DNA of 64,000 nucleotides, from the NCBI GenBank assembly GCA_963728545.1, contig CAVSKO010000002.1:4653817-4717816 (forward strand), given 5' to 3'. Both the position numbers and the translations under genes were made by a program. Source of the stretch: Blastocatellia bacterium. Its GTDB lineage: Bacteria > Acidobacteriota > Blastocatellia > UBA7656. The first letter of the stretch is position 1, and every line of letters starts with the position of its first letter. Of the stretch, positions 5,440 to 64,000 are shown piece by piece. The notes under the pieces were generated by a model, which saw only the letters and a program-made list of their open reading frames with translations, had not been told where the DNA came from and made no database searches.

Positions 5440-5696
5440 TTTTATTATCTCCGGCTGTTCGTTTATTCGGCCACCGCGAGGGCGGGCAGCAGTTGAGGAG
5501 CGCCCTGCGCGCTACAAGGGACGATTGATGAATTCCATGGAATCTAAATACAGGCGTCGGGATCAGCGTGCGATTAACGGCCCGGCGCTTTTGAAACGCG
5601 GGTCACAGTTTACCAAAGCGAGTCAGGTTTGTCTTGAATAGCGCGTTGATTTTTCCGAGCGCGACTGTAATATTTCTCGGTCTCGGCGAAATCAGT

Positions 5697-6473
5697 ATGA
5701 GCATACATTCCACCTCAATCATAAGCGAAGCGGCGCGGTTGGGCGCAGGCGTCACGGTCGGCCCGTTTGCAGTGATCGAGCCGGACACAGAGATAGGCGA
5801 AGGCACAGAGATACGCGCTCACGCCACGGTCAAGCGGTATACCGCGATGGGGCCTTCAAACGTCGTTTATGAGGGCGCGGTCCTGGGCGGCGAGCCGCAA
5901 GACATAAGCTTCAACGAGTGCGAAAGCCGCCTGATAATCGGGGCGCGTAACCGCATACGAGAAGGCGTGACCATGCATCGCGGGACTCAACCGGGGAGCG
6001 AAACGCGCGTCGGCTCGGACTGTTTTTTTATGGCCTGCTCGCACGTGGCGCATAACTGTCTGATCGGAGACCGCGTAATCCTGGCAAACAACGTCGCGCT
6101 CGCGGGCCACATCGAGATCGAAGACGGGGCATTCATATCGGGCGGCGTTGTCGTTCATCAATTCTGCCGCATAGGTCGGCTGGCGATGGTCGGCGGGAAT
6201 TCAAAGATAGTGCAAGATTGTTTGCCGTTTGTGATAACGGATGGCAACCCCGGCCGCGCGCGCGGCCTGAATCTGGTCGGGCTTCGCCGGGCGGGGTTCA
6301 AATCGAGCGAGATTAAAAATCTAAAGCTTGCTTATCAGTTATTGCTGCGGTCGGGCCTCGCGCTCGAAGAAGCGCTCTCGCGGTTAAGCGATATAAACGA
6401 CCCTTTGGTTGATCATCTTATAAATTTCGCCCGCACGTCCAAGCGCGGCTTCTGTCATGTACGTACTGATTGA
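5697..6473 (+). CDS. lpxA: acyl-ACP:UDP-GlcNAc O-acyltransferase
   Basis: Left-handed beta-helix hexapeptide repeats followed by the LpxA C-terminal helical domain (GLNLVGLRRAGF, LKLAYQLL). The ATG at 5697 is in frame within track ORF 5634..6473. Confidence 0.9.
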   Translation: MSIHSTSIISEAARLGAGVTVGPFAVIEPDTEIGEGTEIRAHATVKRYTAMGPSNVVYEGAVLGGEPQDISFNECESRLIIGARNRIREGVTMHRGTQPGSETRVGSDCFFMACSHVAHNCLIGDRVILANNVALAGHIEIEDGAFISGGVVVHQFCRIGRLAMVGGNSKIVQDCLPFVITDGNPGRARGLNLVGLRRAGFKSSEIKNLKLAYQLLLRSGLALEEALSRLSDINDPLVDHLINFARTSKRGFCHVRTD

Positions 6474-30681: not shown

Positions 30682-30732
30682 TATTCGACCACTTTCACTA
30701 TTTGACCACTTTCACTATTCGACCACTTTCAC
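30682..30732. repeat. 17-bp tandem repeat x3 spanning the stop codon of the LTD/IPT gene
   Basis: tattcgaccactttcac / tatttgaccactttcac / tattcgaccactttcac. The third unit encodes the last residues VKVVE and part of the TAG stop. Confidence 0.85.
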
Positions 30733-33700: not shown

Positions 33701-34500
33701 GGCGCGATGTTAGCGGTGAGCGCGGTATCGCTTATGAAAGTGGTGCTGATTGTCGCCCCGTCTATTCGAGCTTCGGAGCCGCTTTGAAAATTACTCCCCG
33801 CGATGTTGACGATCACCGGGTCTGTCGTAGCGATGATCGCTTCGGGCGTGACGGAAGTTATAGCCGGATCGTCAGACACAAACGGGCGACCATTAACGCG
33901 AGCGCCGGGCGAAAAGAGTCTCCCTTCGCTCCCCGCCGCAGAAGCATGAGCCGTAAAGCCGCCGGTGATGTCAGGGCTGCGCGTGAGCGACTGATCGATA
34001 TCGCTAGCAGGCGGCGGATAATCGTGTCTGGCTATTTCCACGCCGGAGTTGTTTTTGATGATTATCGAATCGCCCGCGTTATTCAGGGACAATCCCGCGC
34101 CTCCGATTGCGAAGACAAGTCCGTTGGCCCCGGCGTTTCCAAATGCGCCCGCAGGCACTCCGCCTCCAAAGACGACGGCGGCTTCGCCCGGAGGTATTAT
34201 TTTGTTTGCCGGAATGGTAAACCTCACCTGTAATGCGTCGCTTACGGTGAAGCCGCCGACGTCGAGCGGCGCGGAGCCTGTGTTGACCAGTTCTACGAAC
34301 TCATCCTGAGTAGTGTTGAAGACGCCATCGCCGTTCGCGTCGCCCGCAGCGCCGGAGGCCGGGTCGGCGAGGTATTCGTTAATGATAAGAGGCGCGGTTT
34401 GAAATGGCGTTGCTCGGTTTCGGATTTCAGCGGCGGGGTTCTTCAGACCGCCGACAAAAAACAACATGAACAGCCAGCAGGCAAATCTCTTTTTATACAT
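30715..34500 (-). CDS. giant exported surface protein with three lamin-tail (LTD) domains interleaved with IPT/TIG-like Ig domains
   Basis: 1261 aa with a signal peptide. INEYLADPASGAAGDANGDG...DEFVELVN, INEFLADPPDGTAGDANGDG...DEFIEIVN and INEFLADPPEGAAGDANGDG...DEFIEIVN are three LTD cores. Repeated ~90-aa beta-rich modules (RVEVRNQGGNRSN, RVRVRNSDGQES, VVKVQNADGTISN, DVRVRNPKGEIS) lie between them. Confidence 0.85.
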   Translation of the reverse strand: MYKKRFACWLFMLFFVGGLKNPAAEIRNRATPFQTAPLIINEYLADPASGAAGDANGDGVFNTTQDEFVELVNTGSAPLDVGGFTVSDALQVRFTIPANKIIPPGEAAVVFGGGVPAGAFGNAGANGLVFAIGGAGLSLNNAGDSIIIKNNSGVEIARHDYPPPASDIDQSLTRSPDITGGFTAHASAAGSEGRLFSPGARVNGRPFVSDDPAITSVTPEAIIATTDPVIVNIAGSNFQSGSEARIDGATISTTFISDTALTANIAPPVTSTPARYELTVRNPDSTVSNAVAFTVFDAIGINEFLADPPDGTAGDANGDGTRSATQDEFIEIVNRTSAALGVGGFTVSDADQTRFTFPSNAVIPAGEAAVIFGGGSPQGEFGNARANGLVFTSALSLDNSGDTITLKDSLGNAVERVTYGAGEGSANQSITRNPEIIGTSFSAHSTIGASGGRLFSPGAMVNGSEFTAGPRIARIAPDRVPFDSPPFDLSVEGSGFEVGSNVLIDSAPADTRFISAGELIATVPERVIDMVGPHRVEVRNQGGNRSNVVTLTVTPPPPVLLSVLPKLVNVGTGNFTLFAIGENFNAASVVLVEETPLATTLANGGELRATVPASFASATGTRRVRVRNSDGQESRDQAFEVVFPSGQVIAITPSQAVAGGPQFTLTVTGANFREGAVAVFDQTPLPTRVVSATVIQSEIAEPLIATPGLRVVKVQNADGTISNEVIFRVAPLAPIIHSIDPPAIIEGSPDQTVMIIGERFQPGAAARIVEPSGPRQKLDTVFAGNNRLEVAVKAEMVRVAGKLLIRVENPDFGISNNAALNISIKNPLIINEFLADPPEGAAGDANGDGTRSTSQDEFIEIVNRTSDAIDLSGYKLSDADAVRHVFAAGTVLPPFEAAIVFGGGTARGRFGNAAENSLVFRASTGGLSLNNGGDTIKLEDAAGRLLQEIKFGALEGGANQALNRDPDVDGASFSLHTVVSGSGILFSPGTRAVGQAFTIKPRIHALAPASIRRASASFTLKITGESFQPGALVLFGPAQLETVFASETELGARVGAELITNGGAIDVRVRNPKGEISSAAKFVVFDDPPRLTEITPQEIGTGAEAVEIALTGGAFQPGAIVLIADEAVETIFIDASLLRARPPARFFTRPARLEIRALNADGNRSNALTLEVENGPLVTRLSRSKVRAGNGALEISVGGVSFKPGAKIFADDVAIETRFVSETELRARIPAELTAAPGHIALQARNPDGGRSNKATVKVVE

Positions 34501-42160: not shown

Positions 42161-42724
42161 TTGGACTTGAGCGACAGCCAAATCATCGAGCGCACATTGG
42201 GCGGCGAGCCTGAGGCATTCAACCTGCTCGTGCGCAGGTGGGAGCGACAAATTTACGGGCTCAGCCTGCGCATGCTGGGCCGCGACGAAGAGGCAAAGGA
42301 TGCGACACAGGAAACTTTCCTGTCGGCCTATCGCAACCTGTCGAAGTTCAGAGGCGAGTCCAAGTTTTCATCCTGGATTTATCGAATTGCCCTCAACATC
42401 TGCAACACGAAACTGAGGAGCAGGGCACGGGGCACGATTTCGCTCGAAGAGCAGTGGGAGACTACGGGGTTTGAGATAGCCGCAGAGACTGACGACCTGA
42501 GCGGCAATATTCAGCAACAGCAGATCACGCGCCACGTGCGCCGCGCCTTGCAGGGGCTTCCGGCAGAGATGCGGCAGGTAATAATTATGAAGGAGTATGA
42601 AGGACTGAAGTTCGCAGAGATAGCCGACATACTCGGCATACCTCTGTCGACCGTCAAGACACGCATGTACACGGGCTTGACCGAATTGAGAAAAAGGCTT
42701 GAGCACCTGCGGGCGGCTGTCTGA
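42161..42724 (+). CDS. ECF-type RNA polymerase sigma factor
   Basis: Region 2 [33 protein letters not shown] and region 4 [34 protein letters not shown] start. Confidence 0.9.
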
Positions 42725-42794
42725 ATCAAGCTTCGTATGATTCGAGCGGTGACCGATTGATAATCGAGAGCTTGAGGAAGTGGGTGGTGAGAAA

Positions 42795-43532
42795 ATGACC
42801 GACACAAACAGAACACCGAACTGCGATATGCGCGAAGCGATGGTCGCATACCTCTACAACGAGGCGACTGCCGACGAGAGCCGCGCGGTCGAAGCGCACC
42901 TTGCAGGCTGCCATGGTTGCCGGCAGGAATTCGCATCTTTCGAGCGCGTGCGCGGCATGCTACAGCAATGGCAGCTTGACGACCTGCCGGTCGTGCGCGT
43001 TGAGACGGCGAGCCGGAAGCACAGGTCCGCGCTTGAGGCTTTCAAGGAGCTGTTTGCAGTGGCTCCGCTGTGGGCCAAGCTTGCCGGGGCCGTGGCGATG
43101 GCGATGCTCGTGCTTGCGGTGATGGGAACGGAAGTGAGCGTAGGCAGCAACGGTTTCACTTTGCGGGCAGACCTGTTCGGCAGAGACAAGGGCGTGCAGA
43201 CCGCCGCCGCGACGGCTGATCCGGATATGAATGCAAGGCTCGAACAGATTCGCGCCGAAATCAAGACTGTAGTCAACCTGGAAATCGCGCGCAGCGAGCG
43301 CGAGCAGAGCGATGCGCTGAAAGCGCAACTCGTGAGTTTCGAGTCCCAGCTACAGAACCTGCACGCGGCAGATTTGGCGAAGCTTGCGGCGCGCATTCAA
43401 GAACATCAAGCAAAGATCAAGACGCTTGAGCGCGACATAGACCGCCGCGAAGGGCTTGACCTGACGGACATACTCTTTAGCGAGTTGACGAAAGAGCCTT
43501 CCGGCCAAATATCGCAAAGAGGCAGCGACTAA
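42795..43532 (+). CDS. anti-sigma factor (zf-HC2) with one TM helix and a coiled-coil C-terminus
   Basis: HLAGCHGCRQEF zinc-finger motif about 35 aa from the N-terminus. TM helix LAGAVAMAMLVLAVMG. Directly follows the ECF sigma gene. Confidence 0.8.
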   Translation: MTDTNRTPNCDMREAMVAYLYNEATADESRAVEAHLAGCHGCRQEFASFERVRGMLQQWQLDDLPVVRVETASRKHRSALEAFKELFAVAPLWAKLAGAVAMAMLVLAVMGTEVSVGSNGFTLRADLFGRDKGVQTAAATADPDMNARLEQIRAEIKTVVNLEIARSEREQSDALKAQLVSFESQLQNLHAADLAKLAARIQEHQAKIKTLERDIDRREGLDLTDILFSELTKEPSGQISQRGSD

Positions 43533-44273: not shown

Positions 44274-47404
<3,131 letters not shown>

Positions 47405-48591: not shown

Positions 48592-49875
48592 CTCACCGCC
48601 CCCCGTCATCCTGATTTGGCTCCGGCGGCCTGGGCGCGGCTTTTAACTGGCTTTTCTACCTCCACTAACTTTACATCACATAAACGTAACGCCAACTTCG
48701 GCAGTTGTTTTACTATCTCTTCTCCTTTTATCAGCCCGCTACTGATTGCATTTCTCCCTACTGACAGCAAACTCCGTCGCGGTCCTTTCTTCGTCCAGTT
48801 GAATTGCGCTTCGCGATCTTTCTTCAACACGCTCGCTCCTGCCCCCATCCTTAATGCATAGGCCACCATCGCCGCACACCACAATACGGTCAACTTCACA
48901 TCACTTCTTAACCCGATCTGCTTCAACCCCCATCCATACCTACTCCCCTTCGTGTCTCGGAACCCGCTCTCGATTCCCATCCTCCTCGCATATAGACTTG
49001 CCACCTCTCGCGCTGTCAGGTCCAACCGATCTGTTGCTATGAACCAGGGTGCCTTGTGCCCACGACCGCGATAAACTATCAGCCGCAACCGCGCTTGATT
49101 CTTCTTATCTTTACCCAACTCTCCTTCTCCCAGGTCGTCTAATCCTCCTTCTTTGATCTGATAATCACGCAGTAATCCTTGATACTTGGAGCTTGAAAAA
49201 TAGGTGTTGTGACAAACCCTGGTTATGAATCTCAGTCCGTGCTGGCGCAATTGTTTTACGAGGCTGATGCGAGCGAAACCACGGTCATTTATACAGGTTA
49301 TCTGTTGATTTGAGCGGCGCACCAGAGCCAGCAATAAGAAGAAAGCGTGCTCGGCCTGGTTTTGTGACCGAAGCAGCTTGCGTACCTGGTAAGCTACAGC
49401 CAGGAAGGGTAAGCATCGGCCCGAGTGCATAAGAGCGGCCATCAAGACTTGCCGCCCGTCACGCCACATCGTCCAATCAATGAGCACGAAGCAGTCCTTG
49501 AGTTGAGATGTGTAATGGTCCCAAAGCCATTGCCAGACCTCATCCAAGTTCTGTGTTTTGCGATGAAGGAATTTCTCAATCTTGCGGTAAGCTTTGCGAT
49601 ATTTGAAGCGGCGAGTGCGAGCCAAGTGATCAACGGCGTTTGAAGTGTGGAAACGTTCGTGATAAAGGAAGGCAGAGACGAGAGCGGCAAAACAGGTACG
49701 GCCACCGATTCTCCAAGAAGTTGTCATTTGGCGAACGAGGAAGTATAAATCAATCCAAGACATAAAAGTCGCTCCTGAGAGACTAGATTTAGACAGTCAA
49801 GCTCTCAGGAGTTTTTATTTGATCTGACTTTTCTTGGCAACCTCCTCTTGTATGCAATACACGGGGGGCGGTGAG
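48592..49875 (-). mobile_element. intact IS4-family insertion sequence (1284 bp) with a 9-bp target-site duplication
   Basis: Terminal inverted repeats ctcaccgccccccgt (48592-48606) and acggggggcggtgag (49861-49875). Direct repeat cagccgaag at 48583-48591 and 49876-49884. Confidence 0.9.
48606..49763 (-). CDS. IS4-family DDE transposase
   Basis: 385 aa with D (VLIDWT), D (CINDRGF) and the YARRMGIESGFRDTK block (Y-2-R-3-E-6-K signature). Confidence 0.85.
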   Translation of the reverse strand: MSWIDLYFLVRQMTTSWRIGGRTCFAALVSAFLYHERFHTSNAVDHLARTRRFKYRKAYRKIEKFLHRKTQNLDEVWQWLWDHYTSQLKDCFVLIDWTMWRDGRQVLMAALMHSGRCLPFLAVAYQVRKLLRSQNQAEHAFFLLLALVRRSNQQITCINDRGFARISLVKQLRQHGLRFITRVCHNTYFSSSKYQGLLRDYQIKEGGLDDLGEGELGKDKKNQARLRLIVYRGRGHKAPWFIATDRLDLTAREVASLYARRMGIESGFRDTKGSRYGWGLKQIGLRSDVKLTVLWCAAMVAYALRMGAGASVLKKDREAQFNWTKKGPRRSLLSVGRNAISSGLIKGEEIVKQLPKLALRLCDVKLVEVEKPVKSRAQAAGAKSG

Positions 49876-52008: not shown

Positions 52009-52028
52009 TATCGCCCTGAGAAAAGATT

Positions 52029-52106
52029 AGCCGCCGCAGGCGCGGAAAGCATAGAGCTTTGCCAAACAATCTCTATACGCTTCGCGCCTGCGGCGGCTTA
52101 CTTTTT
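52029..52106 (+). terminator. groEL terminator (16-bp GC stem, long loop, T tract)
   Basis: agccgccgcaggcgcg (52029-52044) vs cgcgcctgcggcggct (52083-52098), followed by tactttttc. Confidence 0.7.
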
Positions 52107-52181
52107 CATCCCTGGTTTTGCGCGCTCACGCGGCCGTCAATTCAGCAGTCGAAGAGGCGAAGTCATTCTTTATCATTCGGG

Positions 52182-52961
52182 TTACGGCTGGGGCGGAAAG
52201 CCCAGTGTGTCTGTGATGCCGAGAAATGCCGCTTCACAAATACGAGGTGCTGTGCGAAACTCCGCGCGCGTAATTATATCGAAATCGTATCGCCGTTCGT
52301 CGCTAGGACTGATCACATCGTAATACAATCGAAAATCAGTCGTCTCATCGGGCAAATCGTCCGTTTCGCAATCGTTAAGGATCGTTATTGTGTAGGTCAT
52401 ATCGGGTAATCTGGGCAGCCACGTCCTTTCCTGCGTGACCGTATCGGTTATAGCAATCCCGCTCCCGGCTTCGTCTCGGCAGACGATGTTGAGACCCGGG
52501 TCGTCTGCTATTTTAGGAAACAGTCCCAATACCATGCCACGAGGATTAAGCTCGGTCCATTCAACCAGGTTATACCGTTCCTTATGCATGGTATGTGTAT
52601 AAAGTAGACCTGCGGTCACGGCCAGTTTTACCCGGAACCTGTCGTTGTGTACATCAACTTTGTCTGCGTGAAGGTCGGCGCCTTCCACATCGGGGACAAA
52701 ACAAAAATCCCTCAGGTCGCCTTCTCTGCGCCGGCTGACCCCTTCGGTCTGTGGGTTTACAACCTCAATGAACAGATTGTTGATTATATCAATCTCCGTA
52801 CTTCCACCAGTAGGGGGCTCGATTATCAATTTAGGCTGTTCGTGTTTCGGGCAATCAAGTATTCCCACTTCGCATTGATTTCTGCTGTTGATGCACATAA
52901 GCATCACGCCCTTAAAACGAATCCTCGCGGTCACGTTGGCACTGCTGGGATCTTCAAACAT
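52182..52961 (-). CDS. hypothetical 259-aa cytoplasmic protein co-transcribed with the TPR-CHAT protease
   Basis: Strong GGAAGGAG RBS 6 nt before the ATG, 55 nt downstream of the CHAT gene stop. No signal peptide, TM helix or motif I can assign. Appears beta-rich (ARIRFKGVMLMCIN, RFRVKLAVTAGLLYTHT, MTYTITILND). Confidence 0.7.
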   Translation of the reverse strand: MFEDPSSANVTARIRFKGVMLMCINSRNQCEVGILDCPKHEQPKLIIEPPTGGSTEIDIINNLFIEVVNPQTEGVSRRREGDLRDFCFVPDVEGADLHADKVDVHNDRFRVKLAVTAGLLYTHTMHKERYNLVEWTELNPRGMVLGLFPKIADDPGLNIVCRDEAGSGIAITDTVTQERTWLPRLPDMTYTITILNDCETDDLPDETTDFRLYYDVISPSDERRYDFDIITRAEFRTAPRICEAAFLGITDTLGFPPQP

Positions 52962-53016
52962 AGCTTTTCTCCTTCCAATAGATTATCGGGTGATAACATC
53001 TGAAAACTCGATTCGG

Positions 53017-56000
53017 TCAAAAGTTGGCGTACCCGCCTACGGTGATAAACGGCGCCCAGTAATACGGCGAGTTATACCGGCGCTGCGGGTCATCTATCAT
53101 ATCGAGCTGCGCTTGCCTGAGAGCCGCAGCCGACGACCATCCGCCCTGCTTTCTATATTTGTGAAAGCTTATCATCAAATCGGCGGTCGGGTCTGAAGCC
53201 ACCGGCCACAGGCTTGCAACAACAAGTGGAACGCCTGCGGCGAGGAACGTGCGCGACATTCCTATCATCCCTTCCCCGTTGTAATAATGCTCGACGCCGG
53301 TTTGGCAGGCGGACAGCGTCACGAGGCGCGTCACCGGCAGCCTGGTCCGGTAGATGTCGAGGGCTTGCAAAACTCCGTCTGATGATTGGCCCTTCGAGCC
53401 TCCTTTAAGCTCGTCCGTCAGCAGCAGCTTTGAGAACATAGGGTTGCGCTCGTCTATAACATAGTGCGATGCCAGGTGTATTACATCGGCCTTCGCCATC
53501 TCATTTCTGACTCTTGTTTTTGTTGCGTTTTCGCCGACGAGACAACCCCTCGACTTGTAGCAGCGCGAAACCGCTTCTGCCTCTTTGCCGGATGAAGGCA
53601 GATCGGGAAGGCCGGGAAAAGCGTCTCGGTCGAAGCGAGGATCGCCAACGCTCAACACTCTTTCTTCGGTCGCGCCTGATCTCTTGACTGCCCCATCCGT
53701 GCTAAGCAAAAACGTGTTTGCACTCGGAGCAAACGACACCAGGTAATCGCTTATCAGATACCTGTCCGTGTCAGGGGAGATAAGAGCGTTGAAGGGCAAG
53801 TAATTTAACGCCTTATCCGGGACGATACAAATCTGCTTCTCTTTTTCCAGAAACGATTCGACGGGCTTAATCAGCAATTCATAAAGCTCGGTCCCGCTCA
53901 CATGCGACTTTTTCGCGGCCTCCTCAGAACGGCTCGAAAGTGATCGCCAGTAATTGAGAACCTTATCGGTCAAGCTGCCCTGAGTTATTTTCTGCTCCTT
54001 CACCTCAAACTTCGTGCGCGAGATGAGCCATACAAGCAGCTTATCTTCGAGGACAGAGTATTGCAGTATCTGGGCTTGTTCGGGCAATCGTGCTCTTATG
54101 CCGCTGAGCATCAAAGGCTGTGGAACCGATGCGATTACGGGATCGTGGCTATTGTCGTTCAAGACTTCCGCGCCCGCGGTCATCAGGTCATACAGCGATC
54201 TTGCGCGTGACACTTCAGAAAAGTCGAACGCCTTTTCGAAATCGCGTTTTCTTGAGTACTCGAAATCAATCGCTATGTCATAGACATACTGCTCTAAATC
54301 AAAAAAGCTGTTCCTATTCTTTTCCTCTTTAATCTTTGAGCGGTGCTCTTCGAAAAAGGCCAGCACGGTTTGTAGCTCTTCTTCAGCCGATGCGTCATTG
54401 CCCTGAGCTATATAGCAGAGAAGCCTCCCTTTGTGCGCTTCATAGAGATAGGCAAAAAGGTCTATGTCCTTGCAAATCCCGATGGCATTATCGTAGTACG
54501 CGGTGGCCCTGTCGTATTCTTCGGTCTGCCTGTAGATATGAGCAAGCTGCAAGGACGAAAAAGCTAAAGGCCGCAGGCTCGTGCCCGCGCTCGATATGGC
54601 CTTCGCCATCTCGTAACTTTGCTCTGCGCATCTCAGGGCTTCCGAATAATCTTGCAGCTTTGCGTGTATTGCCCCAAGTTGCACATAAGCGAGTTGCTCG
54701 AATCCCGGGTCTTTAGCCTCGGAAGCGAATCCTAGAGCGGCTTTTTCATACTCGGCAGCGGCTGCATAGTAACCGAATGTATTGAGAATCCCTGCCGCCG
54801 TGTCATAATTTCGGTACATCTGCCTTGCGCCTGACCAGAAATCACCGGACCGCTCCAGACAGTCTTGCATGTACATGAGCGACTCTTTACGGTCGCCAAT
54901 ATTCTTCAGAGCGTAAGCCAGCGCAGTGAGATTTTTCTGAGTGTTGTAATGGTCGTTTATATTTATTGAGATCTCCAGCGACTCTTTATAATGGGCTAGC
55001 GATGTTGAAAATTGGTTGAACTCCTCGTGTATATTGGCAATCATCGTCAAAGCGCGTTCGACGAGCGAGAAGTAACTCCTGAGCTTGGCATGCTCCGTTA
55101 CTCTGGAAAGCTCCGATAAGCTTTTCTCGAACTCCGACTTTCGATAGAACGAGTATCCTATCCAATAGCGGGCGTACCAGCTTTCCACCTTGTCGCCCGT
55201 CTTATCGAAGATAGCTCTGGCTTGCTCGTAAAGCTCAATAGCCCGGTCGGTTTCAGACCTGGCTAAAAGCGCGTGAGCCTGGTCGATGAGCGTATGTGCC
55301 TGAACAAGCGATGTCCGGTGTTTGAAGCCCGATGATTCGTAGAACCCGGACAGTTCCGAGACGAACCGGTCGCCCGACTTTTGTCTTTGTAACTCGCCCG
55401 CATAAGAAAGGGCCTTCAGAAACTCACCCGCCTTATCCCGCTCGCCTTTTAATGAAGTATCTAGATAAGCACCGAGCAATTGCCACCACACGAGGTGCCC
55501 TGTTATGGCTTCTGTATTCTTGCTCAACAGGTCGTAAGCTTTTTCATCATCTCCGGACTGGTAGGCCGCGACGAATTCTGCTAATAGCTCGCCCCCGTCC
55601 TGCGATCTGGCTCTCTTCCTTTCTTCAAGTTCGTTAAGATGTCGCCGTGATTCATCTGTCCAAGGAGAATCGGCATCTCTTTCGAGATACCTTTTCCAAT
55701 CCTCTTCCGATTGTTGTAACAGCCTCATGTCTTCGTACAAAAGCGCCCGGTTAAAAAGGGCTTCCGACAGCGAGCCGTCCAACTGAAGCGCTTTGTTCAG
55801 GTGCTCAAGGCTCCTCGCAAACTGATCCAGGCTCTTGCCCGTCTCGTTCCCCATACGGTTGACCTTCCCCATCTCGTATAACGCGGCCCCATAGTCGCTA
55901 TAGAGCTGCGCGTTATTCGAGTCCGTTTTCATCGCTTCTTCAAATCGGATAATCGCCTGGTCAAACTTCCGCTCGGTCATATAGAACTTACCGAGCGCGT

Positions 56001-56376
56001 GCTGAGATTCGGGGCCGGGGTCCGTAAACATGGCGTCGAGCAATATCCTTTCTGCCCGATTACGAAAGACTTGATCCCCGCTATTCTGGTTGCCGCGAGT
56101 CTCAACCAGGGGAGCGTAGCTCAGTCCTGAGATGCGCGCCTCAAGGGGCCGCTGCCCGCTATAGGCTTCTCGGAGAGCAGACATCCCTTTGTGGACATCG
56201 GATTGATAAAAGAACGCGCGATAGATTACCAGCCCAAGCCCGACCAGGAGAATCGCGGCAACAGCCAATCTCAAAGGTGAACCGAAAGCCGAGACTATCC
56301 ACGGTAGGTGACGACCCTGTCTTGTCGTCTCTGATCTTTCTTCCCTATGCTCCACGGCTAATTCCTTACTGCTCAA
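53017..56376 (-). CDS. membrane-anchored TPR-repeat CHAT-domain (caspase-like) protease
   Basis: 1119 aa with N-terminal TM helix LRLAVAAILLVGLGLVIY, about 700 aa of TPR-like helical repeats, and a C-terminal CHAT domain with His (VIHLASHY) and Cys (LVTLSACQTG) dyad contexts. The start is TTG at 56376, or GTG at 56355 after AAGGAA. Confidence 0.85.
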   Translation of the reverse strand: MSSKELAVEHREERSETTRQGRHLPWIVSAFGSPLRLAVAAILLVGLGLVIYRAFFYQSDVHKGMSALREAYSGQRPLEARISGLSYAPLVETRGNQNSGDQVFRNRAERILLDAMFTDPGPESQHALGKFYMTERKFDQAIIRFEEAMKTDSNNAQLYSDYGAALYEMGKVNRMGNETGKSLDQFARSLEHLNKALQLDGSLSEALFNRALLYEDMRLLQQSEEDWKRYLERDADSPWTDESRRHLNELEERKRARSQDGGELLAEFVAAYQSGDDEKAYDLLSKNTEAITGHLVWWQLLGAYLDTSLKGERDKAGEFLKALSYAGELQRQKSGDRFVSELSGFYESSGFKHRTSLVQAHTLIDQAHALLARSETDRAIELYEQARAIFDKTGDKVESWYARYWIGYSFYRKSEFEKSLSELSRVTEHAKLRSYFSLVERALTMIANIHEEFNQFSTSLAHYKESLEISININDHYNTQKNLTALAYALKNIGDRKESLMYMQDCLERSGDFWSGARQMYRNYDTAAGILNTFGYYAAAAEYEKAALGFASEAKDPGFEQLAYVQLGAIHAKLQDYSEALRCAEQSYEMAKAISSAGTSLRPLAFSSLQLAHIYRQTEEYDRATAYYDNAIGICKDIDLFAYLYEAHKGRLLCYIAQGNDASAEEELQTVLAFFEEHRSKIKEEKNRNSFFDLEQYVYDIAIDFEYSRKRDFEKAFDFSEVSRARSLYDLMTAGAEVLNDNSHDPVIASVPQPLMLSGIRARLPEQAQILQYSVLEDKLLVWLISRTKFEVKEQKITQGSLTDKVLNYWRSLSSRSEEAAKKSHVSGTELYELLIKPVESFLEKEKQICIVPDKALNYLPFNALISPDTDRYLISDYLVSFAPSANTFLLSTDGAVKRSGATEERVLSVGDPRFDRDAFPGLPDLPSSGKEAEAVSRCYKSRGCLVGENATKTRVRNEMAKADVIHLASHYVIDERNPMFSKLLLTDELKGGSKGQSSDGVLQALDIYRTRLPVTRLVTLSACQTGVEHYYNGEGMIGMSRTFLAAGVPLVVASLWPVASDPTADLMISFHKYRKQGGWSSAAALRQAQLDMIDDPQRRYNSPYYWAPFITVGGYANF

Positions 56377-56601
56377 CCCTTATTATTTTATGGAGAAATG
56401 AGGCAAAACATTACAAGGTTTATCCCGCGCCGCCTATCACAGGTTTGCCTTAATCCGATGGAGGTGCATTATGCGAATGTTGATCGCGACCCGGGAGGTT
56501 GGCCAATTCCCGCAGTCTATCCCCACCCTTTCGCTCGCTGAGGGTATTACAAAATAGTGTACGGATCAAGGTGGCGGATAAATTTCGGCGGGTGAAATCT
56601 T

Positions 56602-59124
56602 TTATTGCGCGCGCAGGATCGCCAGCGGTTTTCGCGAAAGCACGTCGAGCGTGGAGAGCGCGCCTACCACAACCACCAATAAGACCGTGGCCGCGATGGC
56701 CGTAAAGTTGATCTCCGGCGTGAAGTTCCAGGGAATGTCGAATAAGAACCGCATCGTCACGTAAGAAAGCGCCACCGCCGCCATAGACCCGATCAACCCT
56801 GCCACCAGCCCTATCAATCCATACTCGGCCAGAAGAATGACGAGCAGCGTTTTTCGCTTCGCCCCCAGCGTCTTTAAGACAGCCGCTTCATACACGCGTT
56901 GAAACTTTGTCATCGCAATCGAGCCGGTCAGTATCAGAGCGCCGCTTACGAAAACGAACCCTCCTATAAAAGAGATCACAAGAGAGATGGTGTTTAAGAC
57001 GCGCTTGACGCTGCGCACGATATCGCTGACATCAATGATTGAGATGTTAGGGTACTGGTCGGTCATGGCGCGTTGAAAGCGCGCGCGGTCCGCCTCGTCG
57101 GCGGGCCCGTTGATCGGCGCGATCAGCGTTTGCGGCGCGTTCTCTAGCACGCCCGGCCTGAACAGCACCATAAAACCGGTGCGAGAATTCCGCCAATCTA
57201 CGCGACGCAAGCTTGTCACGCGAGCCGTGATCTTTCGCCCCGCGATATCGAACGTCATATTGCCGCCGACATCAAGCCCGGCCAATCCCTTCATGCTCTC
57301 TTCGACCGATATTTCCGGTTCAGCCGATGCGGTGGAGTCCCAGAACTCGCCTGCTATTATCTGCTCGTTCGCTTCGATATTAGGTCAATACGTGATCACG
57401 TATTCGCGCCCCAGCCGGCCCCGGTCCCGTCTCATCTCGGTTTGATCCAGGTCAACTTCAGTGCCGTTGATCGCAACTATGCGGGCGCGCAACGTCGGCA
57501 CAAGCACGGGGGTCTCGCCCGACTGCTGCTCGACAATTTTTTTAACGCCCTCTTCCTGAGCTTTTTGAACGCCGAGCAAAAACATGCTTGGCAGCCTGCC
57601 GCGCAGGCTTATATCAAATTCACGCGTGAGGTTGGATTGGATCAATTGAATGGCGACTACGAGAAATACTCCGAGTCCTACGGCCATGATAATGACTCGC
57701 GTCTGATTGCCCGGCCGGTAGAGACTGTTGATGGCCTGTTTGAGCGCGAACGACGAGACGGGTTTCGCGCGGCGCACCAGGGCGATCAACAGGGTCGCCG
57801 ACAGGTGAAGCGCCCCGGTTGTAATCGCGAGCCCTGCCAGGAAAAACAGCCCCACGCGAATCGAGCCTGCCTGCCAGGATACTAAAAAGATCAGCCCGAA
57901 AACGACTACCACAGCCACGGCCCAGCGGAAAACGTCTACCCGGCGTCGCTCTATGCCTGCGACTTCGCGCAAAAGCATGTTGGGCTTTATCTGGCGTATT
58001 CGCAGCAGCGGGAGCGCGGAAAAAAGTATCGAGATGATGATTCCGACGCCCAGCCCCTGGATGATTGCTCTTGCACTCAACTGATAGCTCATGTAAGACG
58101 GGAGGCTGTCGGCCAGGTAGACGGAGATAAAATAGAGCGCGGTTTTTCCGAGCGCTATTCCCAGTAGACTGCCTGCCACGCCGAGCGCGACTATCTGAGC
58201 GAGGTAGACGAGCGTTATCTTGCCCCCGGTCCCGCCGACACACTTGAGCACAGCTATAGTCTTTTTCTTTTGATCTATAAAAACGCGCGTGACGCTCGAT
58301 ATGCCGATCCCGCCCAGCACCAGTATCACAAGCCCCGTAAGCGAGGAATAATTTTCGGCGTTCGCCAGCTGCTCGTTCAGATTCTCTTGAGACTCTCTAT
58401 ACGAGCGGACGTTGACGAGGCTGTTTTTAAGCTCCGCTTTCAATTGCTTGACGAGCGTTTCGGTCTGCCCCTGGCGCACGCGAAAAAGTATCTTTCGCCG
58501 CGAGAGGCTGCCGAAGCCTACAAGCCCGGCTCGCTCAACCGCCGCGCGCTCGACGAAGACTCGCGGGCCGAGGCGAAATCCGCCTCCGATGCCCGGCTCT
58601 TGATTTATCACCGCGCGTATCTGAAAAGTCGAGTTGCCTATCTTTACTTCATCGCCGACCTGAAGCCCAAGGCGGTCCAACAGCGCAGGCTGGACGACAG
58701 CGCCCTGGTTTGCAATCAAGGCGTAATCGAACGGCGAGCCGTTCGACAGCTTGAAATCGCCGTAAAAAGGATAAGGCGGCTCAATGCCTTTAAGATCGAT
58801 CATCATCGCGCCTTCGCGCGCCGGGTCAGCGGGCCGCAGCATCGTGGGAGATTCGATCGTCTCAACCTGCTCCTCAACCATAGGGGCGGCGATGCGGTTG
58901 ATGGTCGCGAGCGCCTCCTGGTTCCACACCCGCTCCGTGTCAACCTGCACGTCAGCCGTGAGCAGCGACCGGGCTTCGACGTTTATGGCCTCGGCGGCGT
59001 TGCCTATCATCGAATGGAGCGCGACGATTGCGCCGACGCCGATTGCTATGCAGATAAAGAAAAACAGCAGCCTTCCCCAGGATGCTCTCAGCTCGCGCCG
59101 CGCCATTTGAAAGATGAATCTCAC
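56602..59124 (-). pseudogene. YbbP-like FtsX-family ABC permease (two FtsX domains) interrupted by one in-frame TGA
   Basis: Track ORFs 57385..59124 (579 aa) and 56602..57294 (230 aa) are in the same frame. The 30 codons between them are open (PNIEANEQIIAGEFWDSTASAEPEISVEES). The only break is the TGA at 57385-57387. The combined length would be about 840 aa. Confidence 0.75.
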
Positions 59125-59858: not shown

Positions 59859-59956
59859 AATTGTATCTATTGCAAACAAGGGAAAGCAAAAGCAGCTTAA
59901 TGCAAATATAATTGAACTTTGATAGCTTGCACTCTCTTTTTGCCTGCCCTTCTTTT

Positions 59957-59996
59957 TTGTTACTCGCTATGTTTTTGTTACCCGTTTGTTACCCGC
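59957..59996 (+). repeat. three direct TTGTTAC(C/T)CG repeats upstream of the integrase gene
   Basis: ttgttactcgc (59957), ttgttacccgt (59975), ttgttacccgc (59986). Candidate integrase arm sites or operator sites. Confidence 0.6.
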
Positions 59997-60056
59997 TTCT
60001 GTATAATAGCAAACAAGTGAAAGCTTAGATAGCAAAGTGCAAATGGAGTAACAAAG

Positions 60057-61109
60057 ATGAGCGTGAAACTTAGAAAAAAGAAGCTTGCCGATGGTCGGAT
60101 TTCACTCTACCTGGACTATTACTCGAACGGTCAGAGGCAATATGAATTTCTCAAACTGTATTTGGTTAAGAACAAAGTTGAGAATAAAGAAGTTCTAAGG
60201 CTAGCTGATAACATCCGAGCGAAACGAGAGCTTGAGGTACAACATTCTGAGCATGGTTTCATACCAGCTTTCAAAAAGAGACTGAATTTTGTTGATTATT
60301 TTGAGAAGCAAGCTAAAGGCAAATCAGTAGGTGAAAAGGCGTGGTTTTGTTCCTTGAAGCATCTAAAGGATTATACGCATGGTCACATTCAGTTCTCAGC
60401 CGTCAATGAAGAATGGCTTGAAGGATACAAAAGCTATCTCCTGACAAAAGTTTCAACCAATACAGCGCACATGTACTTTAGCAAAATCAAATGTGCTTTG
60501 AGGCAAGCTGTTAAAGATAAAATCATAGTAAAGAATCCAACTGAGTTTATTGACAGTATCAAGACAACAGAATCGGAGCGTTGTTATCTCACTCAAGATG
60601 AGCTTCAAGAATTAGCAGATACACCATGCAAAAACTCTGAGGTCAAGAGGGCGTTTCTCTTTGCATGCTATACAGGTTTGAGACTCGGAGACGTTGAAAA
60701 TCTTTCCTGGCAAAACATTCAAAATAACTCAGTCCAATTTAGACAGAAGAAAACTAAAGTGCTTTTGGCTGTACCGCTCACAGATACAGCAAGAGAATTG
60801 CTCTATAGTTTTCTTAATAATGTTTCGCCTTTGCCGACTAACAAAGTCTTCAATCTGCCAAGTAGAATACAAATCGTGTATGTCTTGAGAGATTGGATTG
60901 AAAAGACCAGCATCAATAAGCCTGTAACCTTCCACACGGCCAGACATACATTTGCAACGTTCGGCCTAACAAATGGAATTGATTTATACACGATGAGCAA
61001 ATTGCTTGGGCATAAGACCATTTCGGCAACTCAAATCTATGCCAAGATTGTTGATGAAAAACTGAGGAAAGCTGTCTCTATGTTGCCAAGCATTAAGGTG
61101 AGCCGATGA
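60057..61109 (+). CDS. tyrosine site-specific recombinase/integrase (Bacteroidota-type, with N-terminal arm-binding domain)
   Basis: 350 aa with N-terminus KLADGRISLYLDYY, catalytic contexts TGLRLGD, HTARHTFAT and LLGHKTISATQIYAKI (R..HxxR..Y). Confidence 0.9.
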   Translation: MSVKLRKKKLADGRISLYLDYYSNGQRQYEFLKLYLVKNKVENKEVLRLADNIRAKRELEVQHSEHGFIPAFKKRLNFVDYFEKQAKGKSVGEKAWFCSLKHLKDYTHGHIQFSAVNEEWLEGYKSYLLTKVSTNTAHMYFSKIKCALRQAVKDKIIVKNPTEFIDSIKTTESERCYLTQDELQELADTPCKNSEVKRAFLFACYTGLRLGDVENLSWQNIQNNSVQFRQKKTKVLLAVPLTDTARELLYSFLNNVSPLPTNKVFNLPSRIQIVYVLRDWIEKTSINKPVTFHTARHTFATFGLTNGIDLYTMSKLLGHKTISATQIYAKIVDEKLRKAVSMLPSIKVSR

Positions 61110-61699
61110 AAGGTTATTTATTCAGTGAGTATCCATTTTATCCATGTGCGGACAAAGATAAAATACTTAAGTATTGCCAATCTTTGCCAAGTGTAGAAGC
61201 AAGGATAGATTATTTGGAATTTGTTCTCAAAGAGCGAAAGAATGATTTGGAGGACAAAACCGACCCTAATAATGAAATGATAAATACCCTTGAAGATTTC
61301 TTTCAGCATAGTGAATGGTTGAAACGAGAAATTAGATATTGGAAAGGTATTCTCAATCGAAGAAATCGTAAACTTAAAGAGCAGCAAAGCAGGCAAGAGT
61401 CTCAAGAACAGCGAGCTAATCAAAAACCAGTCGAGAAAATTCAATGGCAGGGTACAGAGGCTCAGCTTGTTTATTTATTTGAAAAACTTTATGAGAAAAG
61501 GCTTTTACCAAAAGCTGTTAATGACAAGCAATTCGCTTTCATAGAAAAGCATTTTATAAATAACAAAGGACAAGCGTTCAAACGAAAGCAGCTAGCACAA
61601 GCTTCTCAGAATTATCAAAACAACAAAGAAGGCAAGCCCAAAGGTGCAAAGCTGATAGACAAACTTACTGAAGAAATAGAGCCTCACACAAGAGTATAG
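61106..61699 (+). CDS. island-borne hypothetical protein, possible RteC-like winged-helix C-terminus
   Basis: The start overlaps the integrase stop (ATGA). 197 aa with a coiled, Lys/Gln-rich middle. KIQWQGTEAQLVYLFEKLYEKRLL resembles the xWxGsxxxLvyLf helix seen in Bacteroidota CTn regulators (from memory only). Confidence 0.5.
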   Translation: MKGYLFSEYPFYPCADKDKILKYCQSLPSVEARIDYLEFVLKERKNDLEDKTDPNNEMINTLEDFFQHSEWLKREIRYWKGILNRRNRKLKEQQSRQESQEQRANQKPVEKIQWQGTEAQLVYLFEKLYEKRLLPKAVNDKQFAFIEKHFINNKGQAFKRKQLAQASQNYQNNKEGKPKGAKLIDKLTEEIEPHTRV

Positions 61700-61933
61700 C
61701 ATGTTGATGTTCCCCGTGCAGATTGTGGGTTAGAATTACCCCAACGGCTTTTCCGGGTACAACTATGGCCGATTGGTGAATACCCGCAATTTGACCTTAC
61801 GATGTAAAATGATACTCAAGAACTATGGGAAGTAATAAGGAATTCCGCTTTTTTAGCTTCTGCATTTAGACACTTTGGTTATTTTGTCTAATTCAGAAAT
61901 CTTCAACAAATCTTAATTTTTGTTTTAATAAAG

Positions 61934-62416
61934 CTAACACCCGGCTTGCTTCGCCGCTGCTTCTATCCAAGCCCCAAGATTGTCGCGACCATTGTCATTT
62001 ACCCAATCATAGGTTTTATAGATTGAGGAAAGAAGCTTTCCGTTTATTGATAACTTATCAAACGGATTGGTTCCTTTAAGGTCCGTGCTCCCATCAAACA
62101 AACGACAATTATGGATATAAATTGCAAGCAAGCCATTCCCACATTTCAAGCTTTCATCTATCTCATATTTCACCCACTTTCTTTCTGATGTTTTCGCACC
62201 AACTAAAACCACAGTTACAGATGTGCCTTTTAACTGTTGGGCGATCCAGTTTTTAATTGCCTGGTCTCCGCCTCTTTTTACTTCCTCCCATTTTGCACCG
62301 TCAATAAAGTCAGAAGTTTGAATAGAATTATTCTTTACGACGTTGCTGTTTCTAACTTGCCCTGCTCTGACCGCATCTCTTTGATAGTGAAAACTGAAAA
62401 ACACTTTCCTTGCCAT
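61934..62416 (-). CDS. thsB: Thoeris ThsB, TIR-like (DUF1863-type) protein
   Basis: 160 aa with KVFFSFHYQRD start and TSVTVVLVGAKTSERKWVKYEIDESL, typical of the MTH538/DUF1863 TIR-like family. It starts 1 nt after the thsA stop. Confidence 0.8.
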   Translation of the reverse strand: MARKVFFSFHYQRDAVRAGQVRNSNVVKNNSIQTSDFIDGAKWEEVKRGGDQAIKNWIAQQLKGTSVTVVLVGAKTSERKWVKYEIDESLKCGNGLLAIYIHNCRLFDGSTDLKGTNPFDKLSINGKLLSSIYKTYDWVNDNGRDNLGAWIEAAAKQAGC

Positions 62417-62417
62417 C

Positions 62418-63857
62418 TTATTTGTTCACTCCTTTGATGATTTGGATAATCTTGCTGATTATCTCATCGGTCGCTTGTGCCTTACTGTTGGAAATATCTT
62501 CCAACAGCGGAATTATCTTTGCGTTGTTAGGGTAGCAAGATTTGAGGTCTTTTGACATCTCATCAAAAATCTCTTTTGCCATATAACCTGTCACTGGGAT
62601 AGGCAATGGAATAAGGCCATTTTCCATTGCAATTTCAAATTCTCTTTTGATTCCATTAGCTAAAATTACATTATTATCTTTATCTAATTTGTTGCCAAAG
62701 ATGAATATTGCAATTCCTGCGAGCTTGATCATTCGCTGCCGATATTCTTCCCAAAGCTCTGAGAGTTCTTTTTCTCCTGTCCTATATTGAGGGAATGGTT
62801 TCATTACCAATTGGTCTTCACTAAATTTATTTGGTCGCTCATAAATAGCTTCTAACGCGCCATTTATTACAGCACTACCTACGCCCCAACCAAAGCCGTT
62901 GACTATGCGGAAACCTGAAGCAATTATGCTCTTACTCAGTTTATGGATGAACTCTTGTGCTTCAAGACGACCCCACTCGCCATACTCTTCCGCACTGCCA
63001 GAGATAAAGATAGTTCTTTTTCTAAATCGGGTTTCTATCTCTCTCAAAATTTCAGTAATTTGAGAATAATCGTCAACCAGAAGAGCTTGAATTCCATATC
63101 GCTTCAACTCCCCAATCATTAAATTCTGTTTTCTGGTGTTATAGTCGAGGTCTGCTTGCTCTTCATTTCCCTTCTCTCCCAATTTGGGTTTTTTTATGAA
63201 GCAGTAATGCTGCCGTTTGTGCTCTCGGTATTTTAGATTAATTCTACTCAATACATAATCTAGGTTTGGATCGGTAAAACTGAACCCGATAAAGAGGAAA
63301 GTTTTGGTTGTTAAATCGCCTGTTAGAGCCGAAAGAAAGGCTTCGTGTGACGAGTGGTAACCCTCGAAATCTTCCTTTGTCAAAATAGCTTTAGTCGGTA
63401 GCGAAACATCGCCGTGCATTTTATAAATTACAACGTCTCTTTTAGGCCGAGTGTTGAATATTTGTTCCACTTGGTGCTTAACATCAACCACTTTACGAGC
63501 CTCTTTCAGCGCGTTTTCTATTAAAGTGTCATAGTTTGTCGTCCAGTAGGTTGAGATAGGTAATCTAGCTAAAATGCGGTGATTTTCAGTTAATTCATTT
63601 TCTTCGACAAATTCTTCAATAATCTTCTTACTCAACTTAGCGCGGCTTTTCTCGTTTACGTGAAATTGTGCTAGAGAGATCAAATCAGACTCTTTATCAA
63701 TTGCCAATCCTAGCTCCTCAGCAATGTCAGCAAGCAATTCTTTCCAATCAATATAGCCAGAGGCCTTTGACATCCCTGCACCAGCAAAGATAGCCACATT
63801 GTTTTCAGCCAAATCTTTGACGAAATCTTTTATGAATGCTTCTATCTCTTTATTCAT
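62418..63857 (-). CDS. thsA: Thoeris ThsA, SIR2 (NADase) + SLOG sensor domain
   Basis: 479 aa from the ATG at 63857. SIR2_2 motifs AIFAGAGMS, TTNYD, KMHGD. C-terminal SLOG region RTIFISGSAEEYGEW ... GFGWGVGSAVINGALE. Length and order match type I ThsA. Confidence 0.85.
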   Translation of the reverse strand: MNKEIEAFIKDFVKDLAENNVAIFAGAGMSKASGYIDWKELLADIAEELGLAIDKESDLISLAQFHVNEKSRAKLSKKIIEEFVEENELTENHRILARLPISTYWTTNYDTLIENALKEARKVVDVKHQVEQIFNTRPKRDVVIYKMHGDVSLPTKAILTKEDFEGYHSSHEAFLSALTGDLTTKTFLFIGFSFTDPNLDYVLSRINLKYREHKRQHYCFIKKPKLGEKGNEEQADLDYNTRKQNLMIGELKRYGIQALLVDDYSQITEILREIETRFRKRTIFISGSAEEYGEWGRLEAQEFIHKLSKSIIASGFRIVNGFGWGVGSAVINGALEAIYERPNKFSEDQLVMKPFPQYRTGEKELSELWEEYRQRMIKLAGIAIFIFGNKLDKDNNVILANGIKREFEIAMENGLIPLPIPVTGYMAKEIFDEMSKDLKSCYPNNAKIIPLLEDISNSKAQATDEIISKIIQIIKGVNK

Positions 63858-64000
63858 ACTACTAAAACCAGGAATTATGCCGGGATGATAATAGCAGAAA
63901 ATCACGTATCTGCTAAGAGAACCGACCAATGACAGCGTAGCGAGGCATTTAATAATTTCAAGAATAGTTATTAGACAAAAGAATTGAAGTGTCTAATTCG

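Follow-up and report, generated by a model that had tools for sequence, protein, structure and literature searches.

What ties a membrane-anchored TPR-CHAT protease to a small protein that no family database recognises, when the two are encoded side by side? The question is raised by a 64,000-nt stretch of a Blastocatellia bacterium genome (contig CAVSKO010000002.1; hereafter the window), in which two genes, both read on the minus strand, lie between positions 52182 and 56376. An initial annotation, made from the sequence alone, had described a protease gene followed by the gene of a 259-aa partner and had suggested a protease-plus-substrate or -effector module serving abortive infection or envelope signalling. 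Our analysis indicates with high confidence that the pair is a member, lacking a sigma factor, of a cassette that resembles the DdvA-DdvS system of Myxococcus xanthus and is nearly confined to Blastocatellia, a class of soil Acidobacteria. The best explanation overall adds that the partner is a dedicated client of the protease; we give this combined account close to an even chance.

The open reading frames (ORFs), Pfam matches and hydropathy bear out the description of the pair itself, including its coordinates, the strong ribosome-binding site of the second gene and the order transmembrane (TM) helix, TPR, CHAT. The two ORFs are separated by 55 nt. Their features, all on the minus strand, are as follows, with the evidence in brackets.

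53017-56376, minus: TM-TPR-CHAT protein, 1119 aa from a TTG start at 56376 (ORF, translation, Pfam)
56281-56376, minus: short N-terminal tail of about 32 aa, predicted to be cytoplasmic (alignment with relatives)
56212-56280, minus: single TM helix or signal anchor, aa ~33-55, SPLRLAVAAILLVGLGLVIYRAF (Kyte-Doolittle maximum of 2.3 at aa 37-55)
54307-56211, minus: conserved juxtamembrane segment (FFYQSDVHKG...RISGLSYAP) followed by the TPR/scaffold, predicted to be periplasmic (Pfam TPR; DdvA profile match)
53035-53898, minus: CHAT caspase-like protease domain (Pfam PF12770, aa 827-1114, E=1e-68)
53464-53466, minus: catalytic His971 (in HLASHY, aa 967-972)
53305-53307, minus: catalytic Cys1024 (in LSACQTG, aa 1021-1027)
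52969-52976, minus: Shine-Dalgarno sequence of the partner gene, GGAAGGAG (sequence; 7 nt 5' of the partner ATG)
52182-52961, minus: partner protein, 259 aa from an ATG start, all-beta, no signal peptide (ORF, translation, structure model)

The real start of the larger protein is probably the in-frame GTG at 56355, giving 1112 aa, because an AAGGA (56363-56367) stands 7 nt upstream of it. Residues 33-55 form the sole hydrophobic segment by Kyte-Doolittle analysis, bar one marginal window within the CHAT domain at residue ~1043, and many TPR families of Pfam are matched between residues ~107 and ~680. A scan of one genome per species retrieved 144 relatives of the protease, of which the best 80 were analysed, comprising 67 close relatives (~35-54% identity) and 13 distant ones (~28%). 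The ORFs of these loci were called mechanically and then searched with purpose-built hidden Markov models (HMMs). Nearly all of the best 80 belong to metagenome-assembled genomes of Acidobacteriota/Blastocatellia/Pyrinomonadaceae, the exceptions being three labelled Clostridia or Heliomicrobium and one labelled “uncultured bacterium”. His971 and Cys1024 are invariant in 72/72 close and 14/14 distant relatives; protease activity therefore appears to be under selection.

A profile of the TPR-CHAT family finds DdvA in the PDB (8ROT chain B, E=5e-11), with profile positions 159-345 aligned to DdvA residues 108-283, and the window sequence by itself matches the same chain with E=3.4e-5. As judged from this alignment, the match covers the juxtamembrane scaffold and is more than a generic TPR likeness. 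DdvA of M. xanthus has its zinc anti-sigma domain in the cytoplasm and, beyond one TM helix, a TPR-CHAT part of ~900 residues in the periplasm (PMC11506125; PMC6061681). It is a dimer, for which self-cutting in trans has been proposed, followed by RseP-mediated intramembrane proteolysis that frees DdvS; the DdvA structure, determined with DdvS in 8ROT, was reported to resemble separase (PMC11506125). According to its authors, no other anti-sigma factor characterised so far carries a TPR-CHAT domain; they found DdvA-like proteins in Myxococcota and one Comamonas alone (PMC11506125). On sequence grounds, the family described here is a DdvA-like branch in another phylum, and the window copy is one that has been stripped of its sigma layer.

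This last point follows from a comparison with the other members. The initial annotation had remarked that no CRISPR, gRAMP or sigma gene adjoins the pair, which is true of the window, but the absence of a sigma gene is exceptional in the family: 52 of the 67 close loci combine an N-terminal anti-sigma extension with a divergent extracytoplasmic function (ECF) sigma gene directly upstream. A divergent ECF sigma factor of 185-197 aa is encoded immediately before the TPR-CHAT gene in L002, L003 and L007; it matches TIGR02989 (~1e-11), also TIGR02937 and, weakly, the type III-E sigma model NF041236 (E ~1e-4). The TPR-CHAT proteins of these three loci and of L006 run ~90 aa longer before the TM helix when aligned with that of the window, and the extension in L002 has a sub-threshold match to the anti-sigma family zf-HC2 (E=5e-4). 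The usual anti-sigma domain of the family is without the HxxxCxxC zinc motif. The classical motif is present at the N-terminus in L051, L054 and L071, two of which have another divergent sigma-like gene upstream, and L017 contains a split ORF with a zf-HC2 fragment.

In the window protein, the ~32-aa tail takes the place of this ~90-aa domain, and the same architecture, a short tail alone before the TM helix and no sigma gene, is found in L072, L073 and the metagenome locus L001. An HMM of the anti-sigma domain built from the relatives has no match anywhere in the window, nor has the HMM of the cassette sigma factor (best E=0.6), and the gene upstream of the pair encodes a MacB/FtsX permease. 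The spacer between this gene and the pair was inspected separately.

56377-56601, minus: spacer of 225 nt between the TPR-CHAT and permease genes (sequence)

Relaxed HMM searches found no remnant of a sigma gene or of an anti-sigma domain in the spacer, and a consensus scan recognised no promoter there. The window does contain a canonical ECF sigma gene (Sigma70_r2/r4_2, 42161-42724, plus strand) followed by a zf-HC2 anti-sigma factor gene (42780-43532, plus strand), ~10 kb from the pair; the sigma factor does not belong to the cassette type (cassette sigma HMM E=1.6). Over its full length, the window TPR-CHAT protein is 64% identical to that of L001, 60% to that of L002, 54% to that of L014 and 39-41% to those of L003, L006 and L007. 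It is thus nested among sigma-linked relatives, which makes the loss of the sigma gene and of the anti-sigma domain secondary. As a consequence, the window copy has no dedicated sigma factor through which to signal.

Such a history raises the possibility that the pair is a decaying remnant, non-functional since a deletion took away the sigma gene together with the 5' end of that for the anti-sigma factor. The nested position of the window protein would fit this, as would an in-frame stop in the adjacent permease gene. However, both ORFs are intact, and the catalytic dyad, the TM helix and the ribosome-binding site are preserved. L001 has the same truncated architecture at 64% identity for the protease and 48% for the partner, so that this form has been long maintained, and the sigma-less architecture is the norm in the distant branch. 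We therefore regard decay as very improbable.

What is retained when the sigma layer is absent is the partner. All 63 close loci that could be evaluated carry its gene on the same strand as the TPR-CHAT gene and no more than 2.5 kb downstream of it, four of the 67 having been excluded because of a contig edge; the gaps between the two genes are short in the related loci, and five of the 63 contain two partner paralogues. Tandem paralogues downstream of the TPR-CHAT gene were recorded in L014, L042, L055, L056, L084, L095 and L003, and in L003 and L055 one paralogue carries an export signal and the other does not. Starting from the partner, a TPR-CHAT gene is found upstream in 11 of 13 evaluable contexts (the window, P0002, P0003, P0004, P0057, P0100, P0112, P0044, P0082 and the metagenome loci L099 and L100), P0093 and P0108 having been left out because their contigs are too short. 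It is directly upstream in all but P0044, where it lies 2.2 kb away behind a second partner paralogue and a glycosyltransferase gene. The two remaining contexts are P0101, which has no TPR-CHAT neighbour and sits on a 38%-GC contig, and P0113 (L008-L010), which has no CHAT gene and where a partner with a Tat signal is divergent from a 396-aa sigma-like protein. In the latter protein, a long insert separates the sigma-2 from the sigma-4 region; a gene for an 801-aa duplicated MacB/FtsX permease begins 18 nt after P0113. Linkage to proteases, which the initial annotation had proposed as a check of its own suggestion, is thus borne out from both sides.

The distant branch extends this result. The TM-TPR-CHAT proteins of its 13 loci begin with a short tail or a signal-peptide-like N-terminus and continue with the conserved juxtamembrane motif, and no sigma gene or anti-sigma domain was found in any of them. 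Directly downstream of the TPR-CHAT gene, 11 of the 13 have a gene for a ~230-aa protein, which has no Pfam match and is remotely homologous to the partner (hhalign probability 97.3%, E=2e-11; in a second run 96.7%, E=4.5e-10; ~200 columns). Likewise, the four sigma-less close loci (window, L001, L072 and L073) all retain the partner. The linkage is therefore independent of sigma and spans the whole superfamily, and the conserved core of the cassette is protease plus companion. The former spans the membrane once, with a TPR scaffold that is predicted to be exported and an intact caspase-like CHAT domain; the latter is the small all-beta protein encoded after it.

These observations bear on a simpler reading of the partner as the output of the sigma regulon, i.e. 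a cytoplasmic response protein tied to the protease by co-transcription alone, of which the window pair would be the remainder after sigma loss. It would explain why the partner is leaderless and why its gene invariably takes the distal position in the sigma/anti-sigma operon, and it has a parallel in DdvS, which drives neighbouring genes (PMC6061681). A leaderless subtilase directly follows the partner in ~13 loci and would fit it too. Yet a partner that was a mere regulon product would not be expected to stay with the protease in the four close and 11 distant loci that have neither sigma gene nor anti-sigma domain. In addition, some partners are exported, and no common promoter motif was found above shuffles upstream of 64 sigma genes, whether as enriched 6-mers or as bipartite 5+4-mers. 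We consider this reading improbable. The subtilase (Peptidase_S8, ~330-545 aa) is present in L001, the closest relative (4726-6144), in L096 (1210-2604) and in L017, L021, L028, L037, L038, L040, L046, L057, L058, L062 and L064, and is absent from the window.

We next consider the partner itself. Its family was collected with HMMER, the window protein serving as query in an exhaustive search of 1.84 billion cluster representatives. Of these, 108 matched at E<=1e-3 and 45 still did so at E<=1e-10, and almost all are 230-345 aa long; a eukaryotic Ig-repeat protein among the matches (P0087) was treated as spurious. Ten positions are near-invariant across 102 partner sequences (G18, H40, D91, Y121, Y190, I192, N196, D209, F210 and C242), and the window partner carries all ten. 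The partner has no match in Pfam, NCBIfam, PADLOC or PHROG, and no Pfam domain was found among the 102 members, bar one Tat signal and one chance DUF match. By these searches, the partner is a member of an undescribed protein family.

An AlphaFold2 model computed from the 102-sequence alignment shows a single all-beta domain of 17 strands and one helix (pLDDT 94, pTM 0.91). Foldseek found no match for this model in the PDB (best E=0.03, TM ~0.1) or in BFVD, and the partner profile gave only chance-level protocadherin matches among PDB sequences (E=1.2). The confident model is thus not that of a housekeeping enzyme. Aligned with each other by hhalign, the two halves of the partner gave no sign of an internal duplication (probability 0.2%). 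The loops at aa 199-208 and 231-240 are variable and modelled with lower confidence, and the second stands just before the conserved C-terminal segment that holds Cys242. The polar near-invariant residues of the close family (H40, D91, N196, D209 and C242) are not retained in the distant branch, which speaks against a catalytic site common to the superfamily. Among leaderless partners, subgroups share sharply conserved motifs at the initiator Met, MPF...LP... or M-x-LDHSKA (the subgroups include L022, L023, L034, L041, L048 and L059, and L015-L017, L029 and L074), and the M-x-LDHSKA motif is also present after the signal peptide in exported partners. The very N-terminus thus seems, from its conservation, to be functionally important.

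Where do the two proteins meet? The TPR-CHAT part of the window protein is predicted to be periplasmic: in relatives the anti-sigma domain must be cytoplasmic and a single TM helix follows, which places the TPR-CHAT part outside the cytoplasm, as in the DdvA structure. The signal-peptide-like N-termini of the distant L083 and L090 agree with an exported TPR-CHAT. For the window partner, no export signal and no hydrophobic segment was found (hydropathy maximum 1.0), and its N-terminus cannot extend further, since a stop codon stands 8 codons ahead of the ATG. Tat or Sec signals, called heuristically, are present in about a dozen of the 102 partner representatives and in ~8 of 71 partners in genomes (~1 in 8). 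Such an exported partner is the only one of its locus in, for example, L006, L007, L039, L044, L072 and L091, and in L072 a Sec-type partner accompanies a sigma-less TM-TPR-CHAT protein. A search for disulfide-type cysteine covariation in the partners, as expected of an oxidising compartment, found no both-or-neither pattern (best phi 0.57, C37 with C161).

This topology bears on two further readings. The first is that of a protease-activated effector, in which the CHAT domain would cleave the 259-aa protein into an active, possibly toxic fragment, as with gasdermins or in Craspase-Csx30. A strict, sigma-independent linkage is what it predicts; the invariant dyad means that the protease needs a substrate; the loop at aa 231-240 ahead of the Cys242 segment offers a plausible cleavage geometry; and the Tat- or Sec-exported minority of partners would be in the protease's compartment. 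On the other hand, the window partner and ~7/8 of its relatives have no export signal and the protease is predicted to be periplasmic, which makes a direct cleavage of the gasdermin or Craspase type topologically awkward. Moreover, the partner fold is unlike that of gasdermins or of any PDB entry, PADLOC gives no match, the related loci are flanked by housekeeping genes and not by defence islands, and no relative was found on viral contigs. Of the protease-plus-substrate/effector module put forward at first, the conserved pair therefore stands, and the likeness to gasdermins or Csx30 does not, there being neither a fold match nor a match to the Csx29 model and the two proteins being predicted in different compartments. 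We judge an effector of this kind to be unlikely, though with a real chance of being correct.

The second is that of a periplasmic co-sensor or modulator, whereby the partner would bind the TPR ectodomain and convey or gate a signal. Precedents for a periplasmic co-sensor are RseB for RseA and CnrX for CnrY. Loci whose sole partner is exported, among them the sigma-less L072, would suit such a role, and the authors of the DdvA study expect an as yet unidentified periplasmic protein ligand (PMC11506125). But a co-sensor would have to be periplasmic, and a recognisable export signal is the property of one partner in about eight, the window protein not among them and barred from extension by the upstream stop. 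We rate this as quite improbable.

We favour tentatively, as possible rather than probable but in accord with most of the observations, a different relationship, in which the partner would be a dedicated binding client of the TPR-CHAT protein, acting as guard, inhibitor or pseudo-substrate. The partner would be made stoichiometrically, from a transcript common with the protease. Leaderless partners, including that of the window, would keep the protease inactive before or during export, and Tat- or Sec-exported ones would do so in the periplasm. A signal would relieve this control and the CHAT site would then cut; in canonical relatives its target would be the anti-sigma factor itself, so that sigma would be released. 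This reading is favoured because ~7/8 of the partners are without export signal while the protease has a signal anchor, because the linkage of the two genes is strict and independent of sigma, because the intergenic gaps are short, because the loss of the polar near-invariant residues in the distant branch speaks against a common catalytic site, and because secreted cysteine proteases with co-transcribed inhibitors that are leaderless and rich in beta structure are well established (PMC3462683).

Several points weigh against the guard or client reading. Firstly, as far as the model can tell, the partner matches no known inhibitor fold, and 259 aa is large for an inhibitor. Secondly, a co-translationally inserted membrane protein should rarely fold in the cytoplasm, so that a cytoplasmic guard is not obviously needed. 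Thirdly, the leaderless subtilase that follows the partner in ~13 loci is left unexplained by a guard. Fourthly, the His/Asp/Cys/Asn set within the close partner family could be an active or metal-binding site. Finally, the topology is a prediction from hydropathy, DdvA homology and the need for a cytoplasmic anti-sigma domain. We also considered, and give a low probability to, a variant in which the partner is a new-fold proteolytic client of the exported caspase-like protease despite having no export signal. It would then enter the periplasm by an unrecognised route, or meet the protease only when the inner membrane is breached. Were the latter true, the pair would be a self-baited alarm for membrane integrity or infection, and so would the entire cassette of the sigma-linked relatives.

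The other half of the initial suggestion was a choice between abortive infection and envelope signalling. Envelope signalling gains from the kinship with DdvA and from the ECF sigma factor of most relatives, whereas defence finds no counterpart in the searches made. In PADLOC-DB v2 the sole match of the pair is a generic TPR model for the protease, and neither the window partner nor three of its relatives match any model. No related protein was found on viral contigs for either protease or partner. No defence-island context was seen: recurrent neighbours in the related loci are housekeeping genes, for example those of a thymidine kinase and an NTPase. A Thoeris system does lie 5.6 kb from the pair, beyond the ABC transporter. 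It belongs to a distinct island of ~39% GC, which begins immediately after the transporter and carries an integrase gene itself, and is regarded as unrelated to the pair.

59900-64000, to the window edge: low-GC island, with a tyrosine integrase gene (60057-61109, plus) and an ORF (61106-61699, plus)
62418-63929, minus: type I Thoeris ThsA, with SIR2 and STALD domains (PADLOC ThsA1, E=5.7e-206)
61934-62416, minus: type I Thoeris ThsB, a TIR protein (PADLOC ThsB1, E=5e-64)

The immediate neighbours are as first described, the pair lying between groEL and ABC exporter genes. In the Pfam annotation of the window, groES and groEL are downstream and convergent with the pair, and genes for an ABC ATPase and a MacB/FtsX permease are upstream on the same strand. 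Between the partner gene and groEL is a further element.

52020-52107, both strands: inverted repeat with 40-nt arms, 80% complementary, an 8-nt loop and flanking A/T runs (repeat search and sequence)

From its structure, this repeat is likely to be a bidirectional terminator common to the convergent groEL and partner genes. The permease gene (56602-59124, minus; MacB_PCD/FtsX) is a single 840-codon frame of the duplicated acidobacterial ADOP-like type. It contains one in-frame stop, at codon 580 (...VITY*PNIE...), which could denote a pseudogene, a sequencing error or a read-through site. A functional tie between the pair and the adjacent exporter was considered, since the CHAT-less partner P0113 precedes a duplicated MacB/FtsX permease; such permeases recur in just a handful of related loci, and the adjacency was set down as coincidental. 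The AT-shifted, patchy composition noted at first proved marginal: the GC content of the pair (50-52%) is below that of the flanking genes (56-58%), but the mean of the whole window is 53.6% and other genes in it are at 39-43%. No repeats, tRNA or integrase were found bounding the pair. Composition is a mosaic throughout the window (36-62% GC across 600-nt windows), and a PEP synthase/pyruvate phosphate dikinase-like gene (44289-46904, plus), for instance, is at 43% GC, well under its neighbours. Elsewhere, an insertion-sequence transposase gene (DDE_Tnp_1, 385 aa, 48606-49763, minus) lies between the phosphotransacetylase gene and groES, and a 1261-aa protein (30715-34500, minus) with three lamin-tail domains (LTD) and IPT/TIG domains is probably a large surface or secreted protein.

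How does the pair compare with characterised systems? Among these, Craspase (type III-E gRAMP/Cas7-11, Csx29, Csx30 and an RpoE-like sigma factor) likewise brings together a TPR-CHAT protein and an ECF-type sigma factor and follows the logic of a protease plus a small partner. However, even with E allowed to rise to 1, the window TPR-CHAT protein does not match NF041237, the Csx29 model, and neither a CRISPR array nor a gRAMP gene is beside the pair, whose neighbours are groESL and the ABC transporter. The window partner is all-beta, leaderless and without a fold match in the PDB, and the fold of Csx30 differs from it. Csx29 is cytoplasmic (PMC11506125), whereas the window protein is membrane-anchored with its protease predicted in the periplasm. 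Bacterial gasdermin operons also place the gene of a caspase-like protease beside that of a ~250-aa protein. Here, by contrast, the model of the partner matches no gasdermin structure in the PDB, the protease is predicted to be across the membrane from it, and PADLOC gives no match.

Another parallel is eukaryotic separase, a CHAT-type protease held by the pseudo-substrate inhibitor securin: it too joins a TPR-like scaffold with a caspase-like domain, and a dedicated protein that occupies the active site corresponds to the mechanism that we propose. Separase differs in being soluble, and securin is largely disordered and unrelated in sequence to the partner. A functional analogy, and that alone, is offered by staphopain with staphostatin, SpeB with Spi, and C10 proteases with Bfi/Bti, where a protease gene is accompanied by one for a leaderless, beta-rich small protein. 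Staphostatins, Spi and the Bacteroides Bfi/Bti are co-transcribed inhibitors that bind secreted cysteine proteases and guard them in the cytoplasm (PMC3462683). Their targets are papain-like and the window protease is caspase-like; the inhibitors are beta-barrels of 105-140 aa, while the partner has 259 aa and no structural match.

The closest counterpart is DdvA-DdvS. The window protein shares with DdvA a single TM helix, then a scaffold/TPR region and a C-terminal CHAT domain with a His-Cys dyad, and most of its relatives also share the N-terminal anti-sigma domain and the adjacent ECF sigma gene. These are the two defining features of an anti-sigma factor that the window protein itself does not have. 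DdvA further differs in its zinc anti-sigma domain, the usual domain of the present family being without HxxxCxxC, and in phylum, this family being one of Acidobacteriota; a literature search found no papers linking CHAT domains to Acidobacteria. A conserved partner gene has not been reported at ddvS-ddvA, where the genes downstream read as CBASS and CRISPR (PMC11506125; PMC6061681); no such genes were noticed beside the cassette in the loci that we examined. Thus, a type thought to be confined to Myxococcota now has a much larger family in Acidobacteria, found among the 144 relatives in species-representative genomes. The companion, not reported for the Myxococcus system, stays with the protease even without sigma and is a concrete candidate, as inhibitor, ligand or substrate, for the missing piece of the mechanism. 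Its family is sizeable, and the fold, though predicted with confidence, has no counterpart in the PDB. In two-gene loci like that of the window, which are natural minimal forms of the cassette, the relation between protease and companion can be studied without the sigma layer.

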